DNA of 42,718 bases, from positions 1 through 42,718 of the IMG/VR virus record IMGVR_UViG_3300014011_000001. One strand, given 5' to 3'. The position numbers were made by a program, and so were the translations under genes. The first letter of the stretch is position 1. Each line of letters starts with the position of its first letter. The notes under the pieces are model-generated. The model was not told where the DNA came from. It made no database searches and saw only the letters and a list, made by a program, of their open reading frames with translations. Positions 34,067 to 39,985 of this stretch are shown here, piece after piece. The stretch is from a virus.

Positions 34067-34687
34067 TTATTCTCTCCAATTCAAATCTATAAAGCTACTA
34101 ATAGCTTCTTTAATTCGATTCACTGGTGAACCTACTTCATCCACTACGTAGGCAAGCAAGGAAGCCCAAGAGTGATGAGATTCACCATTCTTATTTATAT
34201 ATCTCAAAATCTCTTTAAATTCTCTCATTTCCGATTCTGATAATTCATGTCGTAAGAATTCTTTTATATATGCATTTACAAATCGAGCCTCACTCATGCT
34301 AATTTCTAATAGAATTGCAGTTGCTCTTGATACTGTGCAATCTAGTGCAAAGGCCAATAAAGCAATCGCTGAATACTCACTTTGAGTAAAACGAATTGTA
34401 ACTCTTTCACCTGGTGCGTGTATACGTTTTTCAATTGTTTGATTAGTAACATGACCACGAAAAATGGTAGTGTCAAACAGCAAATCTCTTTTAAAAAATT
34501 GGGACAAGTATTCAATACTTTTTCTATCTTTAATGACCAGCATACAAAGCGATGGACAAACATCTTTAACGTGGGTGTATGTAATGTGCGATAAACGGTA
34601 AATTGCATCTTTTAAATCTAATTTTAGGGTAGGCTTTACATCACGTTTTTTATCTGAGCGTGGACCTCTTGCGCCCTTTTTTTCCAC
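34067..34687 (-). CDS. Hypothetical 206-aa protein with an HTH-like segment (GTG start)
   Basis: Long ORF with a basic N-terminus (KKGARGPRSDKKRDVKPT). LAFALDCTVSRATAILLEI looks like a helix-turn-helix. No family recognised. Confidence 0.55.
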   Translation of the reverse strand: MEKKGARGPRSDKKRDVKPTLKLDLKDAIYRLSHITYTHVKDVCPSLCMLVIKDRKSIEYLSQFFKRDLLFDTTIFRGHVTNQTIEKRIHAPGERVTIRFTQSEYSAIALLAFALDCTVSRATAILLEISMSEARFVNAYIKEFLRHELSESEMREFKEILRYINKNGESHHSWASLLAYVVDEVGSPVNRIKEAISSFIDLNWRE

Positions 34688-34719
34688 TTCCCTCGACCCC
34701 CAATAGCGATTTATTTTAA

Positions 34720-34738
34720 GGACACTGTCTTAGTGTCC
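34720..34738. promoter_or_regulatory. Perfect 7-5-7 palindrome in the leader of the 206-aa gene
   Basis: GGACACT-gtctt-AGTGTCC, 33 nt upstream (minus strand) of the GTG start. Could be an operator or a 5'-UTR hairpin. Confidence 0.4.
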
Positions 34739-34842
34739 CTAGTCCTCTTTTAATTTATGGAAAGCCACCCTTGTCCTAGAACGTATAGGAAAGTTTTTTC
34801 TTGGCCAGACTTGAAACAAATTTAGACGGGGTGATTCGATTA

Positions 34843-34971
34843 ATGAGCACTGGAGAAGAAAAAAAACTTAAGGTTATCGAAGGGGTAAAAAAACAGTCTG
34901 AACGTTATGGCTTCCCTACTTATCCAAACAAGAAAAAGAAAACAGATAAAAAAAAGAACCGAGAAAAATAA
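34843..34971 (+). CDS. Doubtful 42-aa Lys-rich ORF
   Basis: ATG 34843 after GGGGTGA. Translates MSTGEEKKLKVIEGVKKQSERYGFPTYPNKKKKTDKKKNREK. Its 3' end coincides with a minus-strand terminator, so it may be non-coding. Confidence 0.2.
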   Translation: MSTGEEKKLKVIEGVKKQSERYGFPTYPNKKKKTDKKKNREK

Positions 34972-34983
34972 TTTTTTCGGTTC
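34948..34983 (-). terminator. Minus-strand rho-independent terminator
   Basis: 12-bp stem (34956-34967 with 34972-34983, one G-U), loop AUAA, followed on the minus strand by eight U (plus-strand A-run 34948-34955). Confidence 0.55.
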
Positions 34984-35052
34984 TAAAAATTAAAATGTTT
35001 TTAGTACAAATTAAACTTAAAAATTTGAATATGTTTAGAGAAAAAATAGTAC

Positions 35053-35117
35053 CTTTTTGTATTATAGAATTTATAAATATATAGAACTTTTTGTATTAGA
35101 GAATTTATAAATATATA
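35053..35117 (+). repeat. 31-nt direct repeat, two copies, 34-nt period
   Basis: CTTTTTGTATTATAGAATTTATAAATATATA (35053-35083) and CTTTTTGTATTAGAGAATTTATAAATATATA (35087-35117), with one mismatch. Confidence 0.9.
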
Positions 35118-35264
35118 AATCTATTTTTAAAAAGGATTTTATAGCAAAAATATAGAAAATAACTAGGCAAAAGATATATGTTTTTTTATAATTTAAAAAT
35201 AAATTTTAAAAAGAGTTATAATTAAGTTCTAAAGTGGATATAATACTTTCTTTTAATCTTAGAA

Positions 35265-35294
35265 TTGACAGATTGGTCATTTAAATGATAAACT
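35265..35294 (+). promoter_or_regulatory. Sigma-A-like promoter (TTGACA, 18-nt spacer, TGaTAAACT)
   Basis: TTGACA at 35265-35270 and extended -10 TGATAAACT at 35286-35294. Confidence 0.45.
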
Positions 35295-35312
35295 AACCAT
35301 AGTTCAAAAACT

Positions 35313-35344
35313 GTGTTGACAACACTTATTTTTTCTGTTATATT
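35313..35344 (+). promoter_or_regulatory. Strong sigma-A-like promoter with palindromic -35 region
   Basis: TTGACA 35316-35321, 17-nt spacer, extended -10 TGtTATATT (35336-35344). The -35 is embedded in the perfect 13-bp palindrome GTGTTGACAACAC (35313-35325). Confidence 0.6.
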
Positions 35345-35405
35345 AACAAACTCACTTTAGAGTTTTTTCTTAAATAAGTGTGTTAGAACATAAATTTGAA
35401 ACTTA

Positions 35406-35448
35406 TTTAGAATATATTTTAGAACTATATTTAGAATATATTTTAGAA
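35406..35448 (+). repeat. Four TTTAGAA direct repeats with an exact 12-nt period (two copies of a 23-24-nt unit)
   Basis: TTTAGAA at 35406, 35418, 35430 and 35442. The unit TATTTAGAATATATTTTAGAACT is repeated at 35404-35426 and 35428-35450. More TTAGAA(C/T) copies lie at 35259, 35383 and 36201, with an inverted copy at 35225. Confidence 0.9.
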
Positions 35449-35503
35449 CTTAATAATAGACTATATACTTTTTCTTTAACAATATAATTTATTATTAAGT
35501 TGT

Positions 35504-35540
35504 AAAAAAAGCCGATTAGTTACCTCCCAATAACTAATCG
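35504..35540 (-). terminator. Rho-independent terminator of the small membrane-protein gene
   Basis: Perfect 10-bp stem CGATTAGTTA/TAACTAATCG (35513-35522 with 35531-35540), followed on the minus strand by seven U (plus-strand A-run 35504-35510). Confidence 0.75.
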
Positions 35541-35550
35541 ACCTAAGGCA

Positions 35551-35769
35551 TTACATCTTAAATTTTAAAAACACATACATGATTGTTAGCAAAATGGACA
35601 TTACTAGTGTCCAATGCATCAAGTACGAAAAAAAGTCTTTAACGCTGTGGTTTATTGAAATAAGGTTGTTGTTTATACCTGTTTGTATGTGACTGAAATA
35701 AGCGAAAAGGCAACAACCTATTACACCAAGTAGAAGCGCAATAATATCTGGAATCAACTGTTGCAGCAT
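35551..35769 (-). CDS. Small two-TM membrane protein (72 aa)
   Basis: Strong RBS GGGAGG (complement of 35778-35783) 8 nt before the ATG. Hydrophobic helices IPDIIALLLGVIGCCLFAYF and WTLVMSILLTIMYVFL. Has its own terminator. Confidence 0.65.
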   Translation of the reverse strand: MLQQLIPDIIALLLGVIGCCLFAYFSHIQTGINNNLISINHSVKDFFSYLMHWTLVMSILLTIMYVFLKFKM

Positions 35770-35953
35770 TTCTTGGACCTCCCATCTTTTTGTATAGGGA
35801 AGCTGTTATTAAATTATTGATTGTATAAATGTTTAACGTTTGACATCATTCCTATACCTTTATTTTTGGCATATACCTGTTTCCCGCCAGTTGCTTTAAT
35901 TTCACTATAAAAAGACAAATAAAATGATATAAAGCTACTATACCTAATTCACT

Positions 35954-35982
35954 ATTTTAATATGGAAAAACTAAGTTGTCAA
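35954..35982 (-). promoter_or_regulatory. Sigma-A-like promoter for the small membrane-protein gene (about 175-nt leader)
   Basis: On the minus strand: TTGACA (35982-35977), 17-nt spacer, TAAAAT (35959-35954). Confidence 0.5.
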
Positions 35983-36280
35983 ATACTGTGATAGTTTGAC
36001 ATTTTTTTAGTTGAATCAAAAGTGCATTTTTATAATGAAACTACACTTCTCCTGCTCAACTATCCACTACTATTATACGTAAATTTCTCCGCATAGCAAA
36101 AAAATAATGAGATATTTCATTCTTACTGAACTGATAGTTTTGTTTTTTTTAAGATAACCTTTTAATAAATATATTTCAACCTCTTGCGAAATTCAACAAA
36201 GTTAGAACTACTTGTCCCATATAGTTTTTCGTGGTTAAAAAATTTCTATTATCATTTAATTTTCAAGTAACTCAAAAAAA

Positions 36281-36309
36281 ACAGTAGGGTTTTATCCTGC
36301 TGTTTTTTT
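36281..36309. terminator. Bidirectional terminator-like hairpin
   Basis: ACAGTAGG pairs with CCTGCTGT (8 bp, one G-U), flanked by an upstream A-run (36274-36281) and a downstream T-run (36303-36309). Confidence 0.5.
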
Positions 36310-36432
36310 GTAGTGTATTTTGAAATAAATTGAATGTAAACGGATTACTGTATTCTATAAATCCATCGTTTTATGTACACGAAATGATAGACTATGAAAA
36401 TCTTACTCTGTGTCATATAAAAATAGCCAAAT

Positions 36433-36461
36433 TTGTCTTTTTACTCGTCCACACTTATAAT
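36433..36461 (+). promoter_or_regulatory. Promoter of the resolvase gene
   Basis: TTGTCT (36433-36438), 17-nt spacer, TATAAT (36456-36461), 40 nt upstream of the ATG. Confidence 0.5.
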
Positions 36462-36501
36462 TATATAAAACGTCTGAACGTAGACAGAAAAGAGGTATTT
36501 T

Positions 36502-37068
36502 ATGAGAATTATTGGATATGCCCGTGTCAGTACAGATGACCAAAATTTAGACATGCAACAAATGGCCATTGAAAAATACGCTACAGACAAAAAATTAGAC
36601 TTAGTTATGTATGTGGAGAAGGTATCCAGTAGGAATGACGAAAGAACAGAATTACATAATGCAATGAAAGCAGCAACTACAGGTGATCTTTTTGTTGTCT
36701 TTAAATTGGATCGGTTAGCACGTAGCACAAAGGAGTTGTATCAGCTAACTGACGAGTTAAAAAATAAAAAAGTGGACTTTGTTAGTATTAATGATGCATT
36801 TGACACATCAACGCCAACTGGACGTGCTATGTTCGGCATGCTAGCTGTATTCGCCGAGTTTGAAAGGGATATTATTCAACAACGTACAAAGGCAGGATTA
36901 GAGGCAGCAAGGAAGCGTGGACGTATTGGTGGTCGCCCTTCAGTAGATGAGAAAACAAAACGGCACATCATCACCCTTTTTAATGCTGGAGAAAGTGCAG
37001 TTGATATTGCGAAGGAATTTGGAATTGCTCGCAGTACTGTGTATAAAATCTTAAAAAATAGCAATTAA
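36502..37068 (+). CDS. Small serine recombinase (resolvase/invertase family)
   Basis: MRIIGYARVSTDDQNLDMQ with the catalytic Ser. VFKLDRLARS, FAEFERDIIQQRTKAGL, and the C-terminal HTH SAVDIAKEFGIARSTVYKIL. 188 aa. Confidence 0.95.
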   Translation: MRIIGYARVSTDDQNLDMQQMAIEKYATDKKLDLVMYVEKVSSRNDERTELHNAMKAATTGDLFVVFKLDRLARSTKELYQLTDELKNKKVDFVSINDAFDTSTPTGRAMFGMLAVFAEFERDIIQQRTKAGLEAARKRGRIGGRPSVDEKTKRHIITLFNAGESAVDIAKEFGIARSTVYKILKNSN

Positions 37069-37071
37069 GGT

Positions 37072-37080
37072 TGTGGATAA
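37072..37080 (-). promoter_or_regulatory. Consensus DnaA box (TTATCCACA on the minus strand)
   Basis: The plus strand reads TGTGGATAA, a perfect 9-mer. Confidence 0.6.
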
Positions 37081-37101
37081 CTATTTTTTTACTATTTTTC
37101 C

Positions 37102-37130
37102 TTGCAAAACTTATCCACAAAGTTTATCAT
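37102..37130 (+). promoter_or_regulatory. Putative rep promoter
   Basis: TTGCAA (37102-37107), 17-nt spacer, TATCAT (37125-37130). Would give a leader of about 290 nt. Confidence 0.4.
37111..37119 (+). promoter_or_regulatory. Consensus DnaA box (TTATCCACA)
   Basis: Perfect 9-mer, 30 nt from the inverted partner, inside the spacer of the putative rep promoter. An A-rich tract follows. Confidence 0.6.
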
Positions 37131-37162
37131 TCTATTTAACAAATAAATGAACGGAAAAAAGC

Positions 37163-37268
37163 AAAAAAAAAGAAATCGAGCTTCACAGCTAATTTGAAGG
37201 GACGGCAATCCCTAAAAACGCTCGACTCGATTTCCCAACCATGTGTTTACGCCACATCGGTTTGATAC
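37163..37268 (-). ncRNA. Candidate countertranscript (antisense RNA) to the rep leader
   Basis: Minus-strand terminator: closing stem GAAATCGAG/CTCGATTTC (37172-37180 with 37226-37234) encloses sub-hairpins CTTCA/TGAAG and AGGGA/TCCCT and is followed by nine U (plus-strand A-run 37163-37171). No minus-strand gene nearby could use it. The 5' end is uncertain: best -10 is TATAAT at 37280-37275 with a poor -35. Confidence 0.35.
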
Positions 37269-37311
37269 GCTTATATTATATGTTATTGAGCATAAATGCA
37301 ACCATTTTGGC

Positions 37312-37333
37312 ACAAATAATTTATATTATTTGT
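37312..37333. promoter_or_regulatory. Perfect 9-4-9 inverted repeat in the rep leader
   Basis: ACAAATAAT-ttat-ATTATTTGT. Could be an operator or an RNA hairpin. Confidence 0.5.
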
Positions 37334-37356
37334 CAAAAGCATTTTCATGGCATTAA

Positions 37357-37405
37357 AGCATCTATCAACCTTTGACAACACATTGGTCTGATAGATGCTT
37401 TTTTC
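37357..37405 (+). terminator. Intrinsic terminator immediately upstream of the rep RBS (attenuator candidate)
   Basis: Perfect 11-bp stem AGCATCTATCA/TGATAGATGCT (37357-37367 with 37389-37399), followed by TTTTTTC. The RBS AAAAGGAG and ATG 37429 follow within 25 nt. Confidence 0.7.
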
Positions 37406-37428
37406 GTTTCCAAAAGGAGCGAATACAT

Positions 37429-38208
37429 ATGACATTGCCAGCAACTCATTATACATATCAATATCTACAACCCTTCAAATCTAAAGAGCAATTAAACGCA
37501 AATACAATTGCCATCCGTAAACAATTCAACGATATTTTTAAACCTGCCACAAAGAAAGTTTTAGATTTCTTACATACTCATGCATGTAAATTTTTTGGGG
37601 TATGTTACATGTCAAAAAGCAAAATTGCCAAACAACTAGAATTACATCGATCCACAGTGATACGTGCTTGTGAACAATTAGAGGCATTAGGCATTATTGT
37701 TCAGTACGATACAAAACGTGTGAATGGTGATAAAAGACAGTCTACGAATGCGATTGTTTTTGTGCATCAATTAGCAGCTAAAGAAGCTTTTATAGAAAAT
37801 GCGACACCAGAATGCGACACCGTAGATACTCTTTTAGATACTCCTATTCTTTTAAATAATACAGATGACACAGAAGAACCTGCTAAAAAAGAAGTTGAAA
37901 AATCGCTTTTAAAAGAAGGACTAAAAGCGAAACTACCTGAAACATTGGGTCAAGTATTATCACCATTTTTTGATGCTAATGAAATGTATGAAGTGGTTGG
38001 TACGATTTATAAAGCCAAAGCATCTGTAGATAAAGGAATTAGAATTGAGGATCATGCAAGTGTCTATTATACAAACATTCTTTCAGTCATAAATGCCTGG
38101 GGACGTGGGAAAGCAAAATCACTTCATGGAGTTATGTATAAAGCTATCCAAAATGTTACTCGTACCATTTGGTTAAAAGAGCGAACTAATTCTTATTTCG
38201 GTTTTTAA
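37429..38208 (+). CDS. Plasmid-type replication initiator candidate (winged-HTH protein, 259 aa)
   Basis: ATG 37429 after AAAAGGAG. wHTH-like MSKSKIAKQLELHRSTVIRACEQLEALGIIVQYDTKR. Context: DnaA boxes upstream, partition genes downstream. Family not identified by eye. Confidence 0.6.
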   Translation: MTLPATHYTYQYLQPFKSKEQLNANTIAIRKQFNDIFKPATKKVLDFLHTHACKFFGVCYMSKSKIAKQLELHRSTVIRACEQLEALGIIVQYDTKRVNGDKRQSTNAIVFVHQLAAKEAFIENATPECDTVDTLLDTPILLNNTDDTEEPAKKEVEKSLLKEGLKAKLPETLGQVLSPFFDANEMYEVVGTIYKAKASVDKGIRIEDHASVYYTNILSVINAWGRGKAKSLHGVMYKAIQNVTRTIWLKERTNSYFGF

Positions 38209-38212
38209 TTCA

Positions 38213-38362
38213 AAATGAAGGCATAATAACTTCATTTCAAGAATATATATTAAAAATGATATACATATACTTTCAAAATGAAAGCAAAATGATTTCATTT
38301 TAGCTGTACATTTTAATTTTGTTGGTATATAATTTCATTATGAAAGCAAAATGATTTCATTT
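38213..38362. repeat. Three AATGAA-N-TTCATT palindromic repeats upstream of parM (centromere/operator candidate)
   Basis: AAATGAAGGCATAATAACTTCATTT (38213-38237). The exact 23-mer ATGAAAGCAAAATGATTTCATTT occurs at 38278-38300 and 38340-38362. A TATAAT (38328-38333) lies between copies. Confidence 0.7.
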
Positions 38363-39903: not shown

Positions 39904-39929
39904 ACAATAAAAAAATAAGCCACTCAAAC

Positions 39930-39985
39930 GAGCAGCTTATACTAGGTCTTTTCCAGAGCCAACCCTAGTATAAGTTGCTCTTTTT
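39930..39985 (+). terminator. Rho-independent terminator after the partition operon
   Basis: 17-bp stem GAGCAGCTTATACTAGG/CCTAGTATAAGTTGCTC (one G-U), followed by TTTTT. Confidence 0.75.

Follow-up and report, generated by a model that had tools for sequence, protein, structure and literature searches.

A putative antisense-RNA attenuation cassette with DnaA boxes in the rep leader of Lysinibacillus phage-plasmids

How phage-plasmids set their copy number and share a cell has, to our knowledge, been little studied outside P1 and N15. Antisense control of a rep leader is a system type well known in Gram-positive plasmids. The Inc18 plasmid pIP501 has a leader of 329 bp, an antisense RNA (RNAIII) of 136 nt, and a Cop operator at the rep promoter, and the Inc18 origin lies downstream of rep (PMC4981023). 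pT181 has a countertranscript-driven attenuator with a pre-emptor (Novick 1989; PMC5703833), the RNAI of pSK41 has two stem-loops (PMC5703833), and RNA-based prophage origins occur in cluster A mycobacteriophages (PMC7157519). Here we analyze the rep leader of the virus record IMGVR_UViG_3300014011_000001, whose whole 42,718-nt stretch (the window) is a complete tailed-phage genome with a plasmid module and hence a phage-plasmid. The original prediction for this DNA held that the gap between a serine recombinase gene and rep parallels countertranscript-driven attenuation overlaid with DnaA boxes, and comparison of 16 copies of the region supported that parallel: it showed the features not to be due to chance, and no computational test capable of refuting the proposal went against it. 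We consider it probable, though well short of assured, that positions 37069-37428 form a copy-control cassette in which countertranscript-driven attenuation would act as in pIP501 or pT181.

With the Inc18 plasmids (pIP501, pAMβ1, and pSM19035) the locus shares a leader of about 300 nt (in the window, 286 nt from the -10 box to the Shine-Dalgarno sequence [SD]), a convergent antisense promoter within that leader whose predicted RNA of 100 to 140 nt would end at an intrinsic terminator, an intrinsic terminator shortly before the rep SD (in the window, a 13-bp stem followed by T6), and a site for a DNA-binding regulator at or upstream of the rep promoter. Furthermore, one copy of the cassette, in L008, sits before an Inc18/pXO2-type initiator. 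The locus differs from Inc18 in its initiator, which in the window is a winged-helix protein (HTH_36 only) and not a PriCT-type RepR, the RepB-type initiators of relatives having no Pfam match. It also lacks a cop gene, the upstream gene being a serine recombinase and the promoter carrying DnaA boxes, and its host is a tailed phage-plasmid.

As in pT181, an upstream segment may pre-empt the 5' arm of the terminator unless antisense RNA binds, and the terminator directly precedes the rep start, overlapping the translation signals. However, pT181 plasmids are rolling-circle replicons with Rep_trans, a domain that the window lacks; no counter-transcript RNA (ctRNA) family of Rfam matches here; and the pre-emptor of the cassette rests on conserved complementarity and folding, not on covariation. 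In pSK41 and other RepA_N plasmids, RNAI acts at a distance and sequesters the ribosome-binding site of rep. Likenesses to these plasmids include a predicted antisense RNA with two stem-loops and a short 5' tail, an antisense target at least 100 nt upstream of the start codon, an SD masked by a hairpin, possible iteron-like repeats within the rep coding region, and a two-domain winged-helix architecture; the differences are that Pfam finds no RepA_N domain and that a strong terminator is present besides the SD hairpin. In its mode of action the cassette thus appears to resemble the Inc18 and pT181 systems, yet it belongs neither to their RNA families nor to their Rep families. As far as the sequences tell, what is new here is a distinct RNA family, host DnaA boxes where a Cop repressor would be, residence in tailed phage-plasmids, and a portable unit found with three unrelated initiators. 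Coordinates of the features are collected in Table 1.

Table 1. Features of the rep leader region, with its flanking genes and related leaders (window coordinates unless another record is named)
Feature	Position	Strand	Description
Serine recombinase (resolvase/invertase)	36502-37068	+	Pfam Resolvase and HTH_7, PHROG 125; 188 aa; left cassette boundary
DnaA box 1, perfect	37072-37080	-	Reads TGTGGATAA on plus, TTATCCACA on minus; 21 bp upstream of the rep -35; kept in 15/16 copies
Predicted rep promoter	37102-37130	+	-35 TTGCAA (37102-37107), 17-nt spacer, -10 TATCAT (37125-37130); promoter scan 9/12
DnaA box 2, perfect	37111-37119	+	TTATCCACA; within rep promoter spacer; invariant in 16/16 copies, including 70%-identical L029
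Predicted untranslated rep leader, ~290 nt	37137-37428	+	Consensus structure with 12 covarying pairs
5' leader segment	37149-37163	+	GAACGGAAAAAAGCA; complementary to terminator tail and anti-SD (37396-37410), inverted repeat I6
Predicted antisense (counter-transcript) RNA, ~104 nt	37163-37266	-	Short 5' tail, SL2, branched SL1, U9
Stem-loop 1 (SL1)	37173-37233	both	Outer stem AAATCGAG/CTCGATTT, inner hairpin GGGA-CGGCAA-TCCC (37199-37212); predicted antisense terminator hairpin on minus
SL2	37238-37261	both	9-bp stem, invariant 16/16; variable 6- to 9-nt loop (37246-37252), 9 different sequences
Candidate pre-emptor (anti-terminator)	37263-37272	+	TGATACGCTT; can pair with terminator 5' arm AAGC..TATCA (37356-37367); overlaps 5' end of antisense target
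Predicted antisense promoter	37273-37301	-	-35 TTGCAT (37301->37296), 17-nt spacer, -10 TAATAT (37278->37273)
SL3, perfect 9-4-9 palindrome	37312-37333	+	ACAAATAAT-TTAT-ATTATTTGT; extendable by AAATGC/GCATTT (37294-37299/37340-37345)
SL4, predicted intrinsic terminator/attenuator	37355-37404	+	Arms 37355-37367/37389-37401, 13 nt, 100% complementary; 21-nt loop; T6 at 37399-37404
SL5, predicted SD-masking hairpin	37405-37421	+	CGTTTCC/GGAGCG; SD GGAG at 37416-37419; -7.2 kcal/mol
Putative plasmid replication initiator, rep	37429-38208	+	Pfam HTH_36, PHROG 1835, weaker replication-initiator PHROGs; right cassette boundary
Type-2 leader cassettes (other records)	L031 2700-3003; L041 2700-3003; L044 2700-2990; L045 2230-2500

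A constant cassette between exchanged flanks

Sixteen distinct copies of the cassette, comprising that of the window and relatives recovered by pattern scans, protein searches, and contig look-ups, underlie the counts given below. The 360-bp intergenic region is 70 to 94% identical in the 15 other Lysinibacillus phage-plasmids and plasmids. A 2-kb query retrieved two Lysinibacillus capsici plasmids, pFN9C and pFN9E, in which the intergenic part alone matched (91 to 94%), and the 13 further copies are 70 to 93% identical. Homology starts right after the recombinase stop codon and stops at the rep start codon. Recombinases beside the cassette belong to at least four types with about 30% amino acid identity to one another, and L029 has no recombinase there; the neighboring ParM proteins are of three types (about 20% identity). 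Three types of initiator follow the cassette, namely, the RepA type of the window, a RepB type, and a PriCT type, the last in L008 and 43% identical to RepS of pXO2. RepA-type and RepB-type proteins have no significant similarity to each other (E = 0.23). The carriers also differ in their tails, that of the window phage being sheathed and that of pFN9C being of the TP901-1 type. In the 93.8-kb pFN9C record (NZ_CP106865.1; L042/L043), a phage-plasmid of about 46.9 kb is present as two head-to-tail copies, and each gene is listed twice under one protein accession; the dimer either is real or stems from assembly.

Initiator-specific sites cannot underlie a control region that remains unchanged as initiators are exchanged; such a region has to work through host factors or RNA. 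Sequence comparison clearly presents the cassette as a portable unit that has been combined with three unrelated initiator families, and it would be portable because no part of it requires the initiator protein. Rep-binding iterons or auto-repression within the cassette were rejected, since initiators without detectable similarity share it and a listing of repeats gave no iterons there. The cassette appears to have moved between at least three unrelated initiator families and between phage types. It provides a concrete, testable, initiator-independent antisense/attenuator circuit for Gram-positive phage-plasmids and could serve as a compact, portable copy-control part in Bacillales vectors.

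The same pattern could be read as conservation for recombination, with the region serving as a homologous linker for module swaps or as a site for the adjacent recombinase. The sharp homology boundaries, the mosaic flanks, the presence of two carriers (pFN9C and pFN9E) in one cell, and the serine recombinase gene adjoining most copies are all in keeping with this. Yet recombinases that are only about 30% identical, and that are missing from L029, cannot all use one site, and a res site for the neighboring recombinase was rejected on these grounds; moreover, compensatory substitutions and strand-specific wobbles (see below) show selection on RNA structure. We regard recombination as a very improbable reason for the conservation. 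Module swapping is probably real, but it is a consequence of the conserved cassette and not an alternative function.

No cassette copy outside rep leaders was found in the searches made. Genome-wide scans of species-representative genomes yielded no copy, only one chance 20-mer in Chryseobacterium, and a search of a phage collection gave no match to the cassette. A leader peptide or type I toxin was also considered and rejected: the 44-codon open reading frame (ORF) at 37241-37375 on the plus strand has no SD, and in pFN9C it meets a stop at codon 3. On the minus strand no ORF is conserved across the cassette, in agreement with the earlier statement that no gene lies there.

RNA structures on the two strands

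Structure was assessed with RNAalifold and pair counts over the 16 copies, and five helices were supported. For the plus-strand leader (37137-37431), the predicted fold has an energy of -75 kcal/mol (z = -5.5). Pairing is found in 96.8% of the predicted base-pair cells, and 12 pairs have changed on both sides, compared with 4.9 ± 1.3 in shuffled alignments (0/500) and 2 to 4 in slid controls. It is this comparison of sequences that establishes the conservation, the structures, their strandedness, the promoter signatures, and the DnaA boxes described here.

The terminator hairpin SL4 has an energy of -22.2 kcal/mol and contains a compensatory pair series (U-A, U·G, and C-G). The perfect terminator with a U-tract that had been proposed before rep is present, with 13-nt arms and then T6, but its supposed distance of 25 nt from the ribosome-binding site did not hold: from the end of the T-run it is 11 nt to the SD (GGAG) and 24 nt to the ATG (37429). 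A simple terminator scan flagged neither SL4 nor the minus-strand hairpin, because both have loops of more than 8 nt. In L008, the following hairpin, SL5, is rebuilt from a different sequence and masks the SD again. G·U pairs are far more frequent when these helices are read in the plus than in the minus sense (SL4, 10 versus 1; SL5, 18 versus 4; together, 28 versus 5), and this wobble asymmetry shows the predicted terminator and the predicted SD-masking hairpin to be structures that function in plus-strand RNA.

The perfect 9-4-9 inverted repeat of the original prediction was recovered as SL3, which is located outside the antisense transcript and in which six of the eight pairs covary through changes on both sides. 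We favor an RNA hairpin here; SL3 could instead be a protein operator. Pairing of the 5' leader end with the 3' arm of SL3 (I9) was judged to be due to chance, since the complementarity is lost in L003-type copies. The 15-nt duplex between 37149-37163 and 37396-37410 is predicted at -14.5 kcal/mol (shuffle p of about 0.009), and its motif is kept in the distant type-2 leaders described below. This pairing could free the SD in read-through transcripts; alternatively, the complementarity could reflect T-run and CGTT tails common to the two convergent terminators. A 'TGC..TTTTTTCGTT' tail follows both outward-facing terminators, each on its own strand, in most copies.

On the minus strand, the original prediction had noted a complex hairpin followed by U9 and, correspondingly, an A9 tract. 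The tract is present at 37163-37171, and the hairpin was confirmed as a branched structure: the fold of 37160-37268 has an energy of -35.2 kcal/mol (z = -3.4) and agrees with a consensus fold containing compensatory pairs. In SL1, the outer stem and the inner hairpin carry compensatory changes in L028, L035, and L039. All 16 copies have a minus-strand run of U8 to U10 after SL1, while the plus side has no U-run. Upstream of the hairpins, the hexamers TTGCAT or TTGCAA and TAATAT are kept in 16/16 copies, with one variant -10 (TAAGAT, in L035), and their spacing is always 17 nt while the spacer sequence drifts. As the promoter hexamers with their spacing and the hairpin with its U-run are both conserved, we predict an antisense RNA of about 104 nt, the ends of which (37266->37163) derive from the promoter and the U-run. 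The support for this predicted antisense RNA gene in the rep leader is comparative.

Where the sense and antisense RNAs overlap, in SL1 and SL2, G·U pairs number 4 versus 4 among 416 cells and the helices are Watson-Crick paired on both strands. So few wobbles in either sense fit stems obliged to fold on both strands. The SL2 stem taken alone is uninformative either way because it is invariant. The window's own copy, itself part of the covariance model built for the antisense RNA, matched that model at 126.9 bits. Against Rfam 15, a covariance-model search of the region found no ctRNA family at E <= 10, only chance-level matches at E > 3, and the related leaders and those of Inc18 plasmids had no Rfam match.

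The loops of the antisense RNA vary about as much as the unpaired linkers, with the SL2 stem fixed. Loops of this kind fit a cis-antisense pair, whose two members are complementary by default, and argue against a trans-acting seed. They bear on the possibility that the minus-strand product acts in trans as a small RNA on targets of the host or phage (for instance, in immunity or lysogeny) and lies in the rep leader by chance. Its own promoter-like and terminator-like signals and its stable fold would suit such a role, but the loops most likely to act as seeds are the variable parts while the stems are fixed, and the searches made recovered no copy away from rep leaders. We therefore hold a trans-acting function to be very unlikely. 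YUNR U-turn motifs were not consistently present in the loops on either strand and are uninformative.

A second leader type (type-2) with the same layout was found at rep homologues of 55 to 65% identity (L031, L041, and L044). Its parts are a TTGCAT promoter, the motif GAACGGAAAAA, a minus-strand branched hairpin with a U-run, and the terminator tail GCTTTTTTCGTTT; its DnaA box is intact in L041 and degenerate (TGTGGTAAC) in L031 and L044. The antisense promoter matches the consensus at 11 of 12 positions in L031 and L044, and in L031 it occupies the same place as in the window. Like the cassette, type-2 leaders are common to RepA-type, RepB-type, and PriCT-type initiators in Lysinibacillus plasmids and phage-plasmids. 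Their hairpin loop, GCTACCAAC, recurs in the rep leaders of pXO2 (repS), an Enterococcus Inc18-type plasmid, and a Lysinibacillus fusiformis plasmid. The loop hairpin occurs in the leader ahead of rep in L046, L047, L045, L041, L031, and L044. This loop is absent from the type-1 leader of the window, whose predicted RNA differs from those of Inc18 also in having no detectable homology to them. The covariance model of the window antisense RNA found no match in Inc18, pXO2, or type-2 leaders, and homology of the cassette to these leaders was rejected on that basis; what it shares with type-2 leaders is limited to short terminal motifs, TAACAAAT..GAACGGAAAAA and GCTTTTTTCGTTT.

DnaA boxes, alternative folding, and the proposed circuit

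The inverted perfect DnaA boxes of the original prediction, one of them in the promoter spacer, were both located. They are the only perfect boxes in the 42.7-kb window, in which 0.45 would be expected, and for that reason we infer that a pair 31 bp apart is far beyond chance; across the copies, 31 of 32 boxes are conserved. The -35 of the rep promoter is invariant and its -10 is TATCAT, TATTAT, or TAGTAT, and no other plus-strand promoter nearer rep was found by the scan or conserved in the 16 copies. Host DnaA may well repress the rep promoter. Boxes at the position held by Cop in Inc18 plasmids suggest a direct link from the replication-initiation state of the host to replication of the prophage-plasmid.

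The boxes also have a place in a different view, according to which the cassette is or contains the prophage-plasmid origin, either a DnaA-box/AT-rich one or an RNA-based one like those of ColE1 and RedRock, with the winged-helix genes as accessories. In its favor, the only perfect DnaA boxes of the genome flank a 21-bp AT-rich stretch, and the cassette is conserved whatever initiator gene follows. As in ColE1 (RNAI/RNAII) and the origins of cluster A mycobacteriophages, the antisense RNA has its complement in the 5' portion of a structured sense RNA, and the likeness extends to a noncoding module conserved independently of Rep and to an extrachromosomal prophage host; RNA-based prophage origins exist in mycobacteriophages (PMC7157519). 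In contrast to those systems, the sense RNA here runs into a rep-type gene in every copy and ends at a terminator, not at an RNA-DNA hybrid site. Every copy ends in the SD and start codon of an initiator-type gene, and the cassette was never found alone. An intrinsic terminator and an SD-masking hairpin at the end of the plus RNA are features of expression control. No iterons occur in the cassette, iteron-like repeats lying elsewhere, at 37798-37843 (in rep) and 38109-38362, and Inc18 relatives have their origin downstream of rep (PMC4981023). An origin within the cassette seems to us improbable, and slightly more so in its ColE1- or RedRock-like form, in which the terminated plus RNA would be a pre-primer, the antisense RNA of about 104 nt its inhibitor, and the DnaA boxes an entry point for helicase loading. 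If true, the RNA-based form would explain a constant cassette with freely exchanged winged-helix or PriCT genes and would be without precedent among Firmicutes phage-plasmids.

Countertranscript-driven attenuation, the reading we prefer, calls for alternative folds of the leader. We computed nascent-leader folds to the point before the terminator 3' arm exists, masking the antisense target (37163-37266) to represent bound antisense RNA. In the minimum free energy structure of the nascent leader, the terminator 5' arm pairs with UGAUACGCUU (37263-37272) in 13 of the 16 copies. Masking lowers the probability of upstream pairing of this arm from 0.5-0.8 to 0.06-0.36, and 94% of the cells in the pairing of pre-emptor and 5' arm are complementary. 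The pre-emptor step of the mechanism is plausible as modeled. Folding with and without the antisense partner, which had been put forward as a check, gave a divided outcome: the switch appears in the nascent leader, but the full-length fold is the terminator form either way.

We propose that the circuit would operate as follows. The sigma-A-type promoter (37102-37130) would start the leader of about 290 nt, and host DnaA, on two boxes that bracket and invade this promoter, would set how often it fires, most likely by repression; DnaA would thus stand in for the Cop repressor of Inc18 plasmids. The convergent promoter within the leader (37301->37273) would make the antisense RNA with its two stem-loops and its own terminator. 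When antisense RNA is scarce, the nascent leader would pair TGATACGCTT (37263-37272) with the terminator 5' arm, and transcription would read through into rep. When antisense RNA occupies the SL1/SL2 target, pre-emptor pairing would be blocked, the terminator (37355-37404) would form, and transcription would stop 24 nt before the rep ATG. Transcripts that escape would be further restrained by the SD-masking hairpin, acting as a translational brake. Because the level of antisense RNA would track gene dosage, the outcome would be a low and steady copy number of the prophage-plasmid. In this scheme, antisense RNA production, termination caused by it, and repression by DnaA are the steps that we infer.

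Several observations weigh against this scheme. The antisense promoter matches the consensus at only 7 to 8 of 12 positions, and the promoter scan does not flag it. Pre-emptor pairing is without covariation and has uncompensated mismatches (GCTT->GATT) in L001, L026, and L035. At equilibrium the full-length leader adopts the terminator form whether antisense RNA is present or not, which means that read-through would need to be kinetic. The label 'rep' is itself contextual, as the protein matches only a generic winged helix-turn-helix (wHTH). Finally, pFN9C and pFN9E, with RepB proteins that are 92% identical, co-reside in one strain, and only three core positions, of which two lie in the SL2 loop, distinguish their predicted antisense RNAs. 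Coexistence of antisense RNAs so nearly identical is not expected of a strict incompatibility determinant unless the two SL2-loop changes suffice. Single loop changes give specificity in other antisense systems. Either two loop changes give enough specificity here or the antisense RNA is not a strong incompatibility determinant; two bases apart in one loop, the two plasmids form a natural pair that may reveal how small RNA changes could create compatibility.

Some of these points would suit a leader that works in cis on the plus strand only, with the terminator and SD hairpin holding rep low and the minus-strand gene silent or without function. The low expression would then perhaps be tuned by DnaA, another protein, or RNA stability, and the minus-strand hairpins would mirror the plus-strand structures. 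Besides the weak consensus match of the antisense promoter and the terminator form that the leader adopts at equilibrium without a partner, the G·U asymmetry is in line with this explanation, as it proves plus-strand function for SL3 to SL5 only. What such a leader leaves unexplained is the minus-strand run of U8 to U10 after SL1 in 16/16 copies with no U-run on the plus side, the conserved hexamers at a fixed 17-nt spacing around a drifting spacer, and the avoidance of G·U in SL1 and SL2 in both senses. Type-2 relatives, moreover, have a near-consensus antisense promoter at the equivalent place. We consider a purely plus-strand leader unlikely, if still the first alternative to bear in mind, and retain antisense-driven attenuation as our preferred reading of the cassette.

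Genes and repeats around the cassette

The plasmid module of the window is rep-parM-parR, and the rest of the window carries phage genes for terminase, portal, capsid, tail sheath, tape measure, baseplate, and endolysin. The gene order around the cassette is serine recombinase, the 360-bp gap, winged-helix rep, a parM-like gene, a parR-like gene, a CI/LexA-type repressor gene, and a phage DnaD-type replication gene. A structural model of the rep protein (predicted local distance difference test score, 79) consists of a winged helix-turn-helix, a disordered linker, and a helical C-domain. When this model was used in a fold search of the PDB, only generic wHTH matches were returned, the RepA_N structure 4pql being one of these. 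Its putative initiator function follows from context, PHROG matches, and the equivalence with the initiator in L008.

Within rep, DNA-level tandem repeats lie at 37798-37843 (codons 124 to 139). AATGCGACACC occurs twice with a period of 13, which is not a multiple of 3, and TAGATACTC occurs twice in the same stretch with a period of 12. These repeats fall in the part encoding the disordered linker; RepA-type homologues retain the first pair, and the rep of L031 has a different repeat at the equivalent position. By analogy with RepA_N plasmids, they are candidate iterons or a candidate origin. Three 36-nt units with a spacing of 62 to 63 bp are found at 38109-38362, directly upstream of parM, and a partial fourth copy sits inside the 3' end of rep. 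Each unit contains the palindrome ATGAAAGC-AAAAT-GATTTCAT. These units probably serve the ParR-like protein as a parC-type centromere, or they are possibly Rep iterons.

Upstream of the recombinase gene, about 1.8 kb (34700-36500) is mostly noncoding. The stretch at 35000-35500 has just 14 to 22% G+C and contains a 34-nt tandem repeat (35053-35120) and several inverted repeats; this low-G+C noncoding DNA could be a recombination site or an origin. The minus-strand gene at 34067-34687 encodes a 206-aa protein without a Pfam, PHROG, or NCBIfam match, and it adjoins the recombinase-rep module in almost all related elements. On the other side, between the parR-like gene and a convergent HTH gene, a 21-nt inverted repeat at 39926-39984 (90% complementary, 17-nt loop) is probably a bidirectional terminator.

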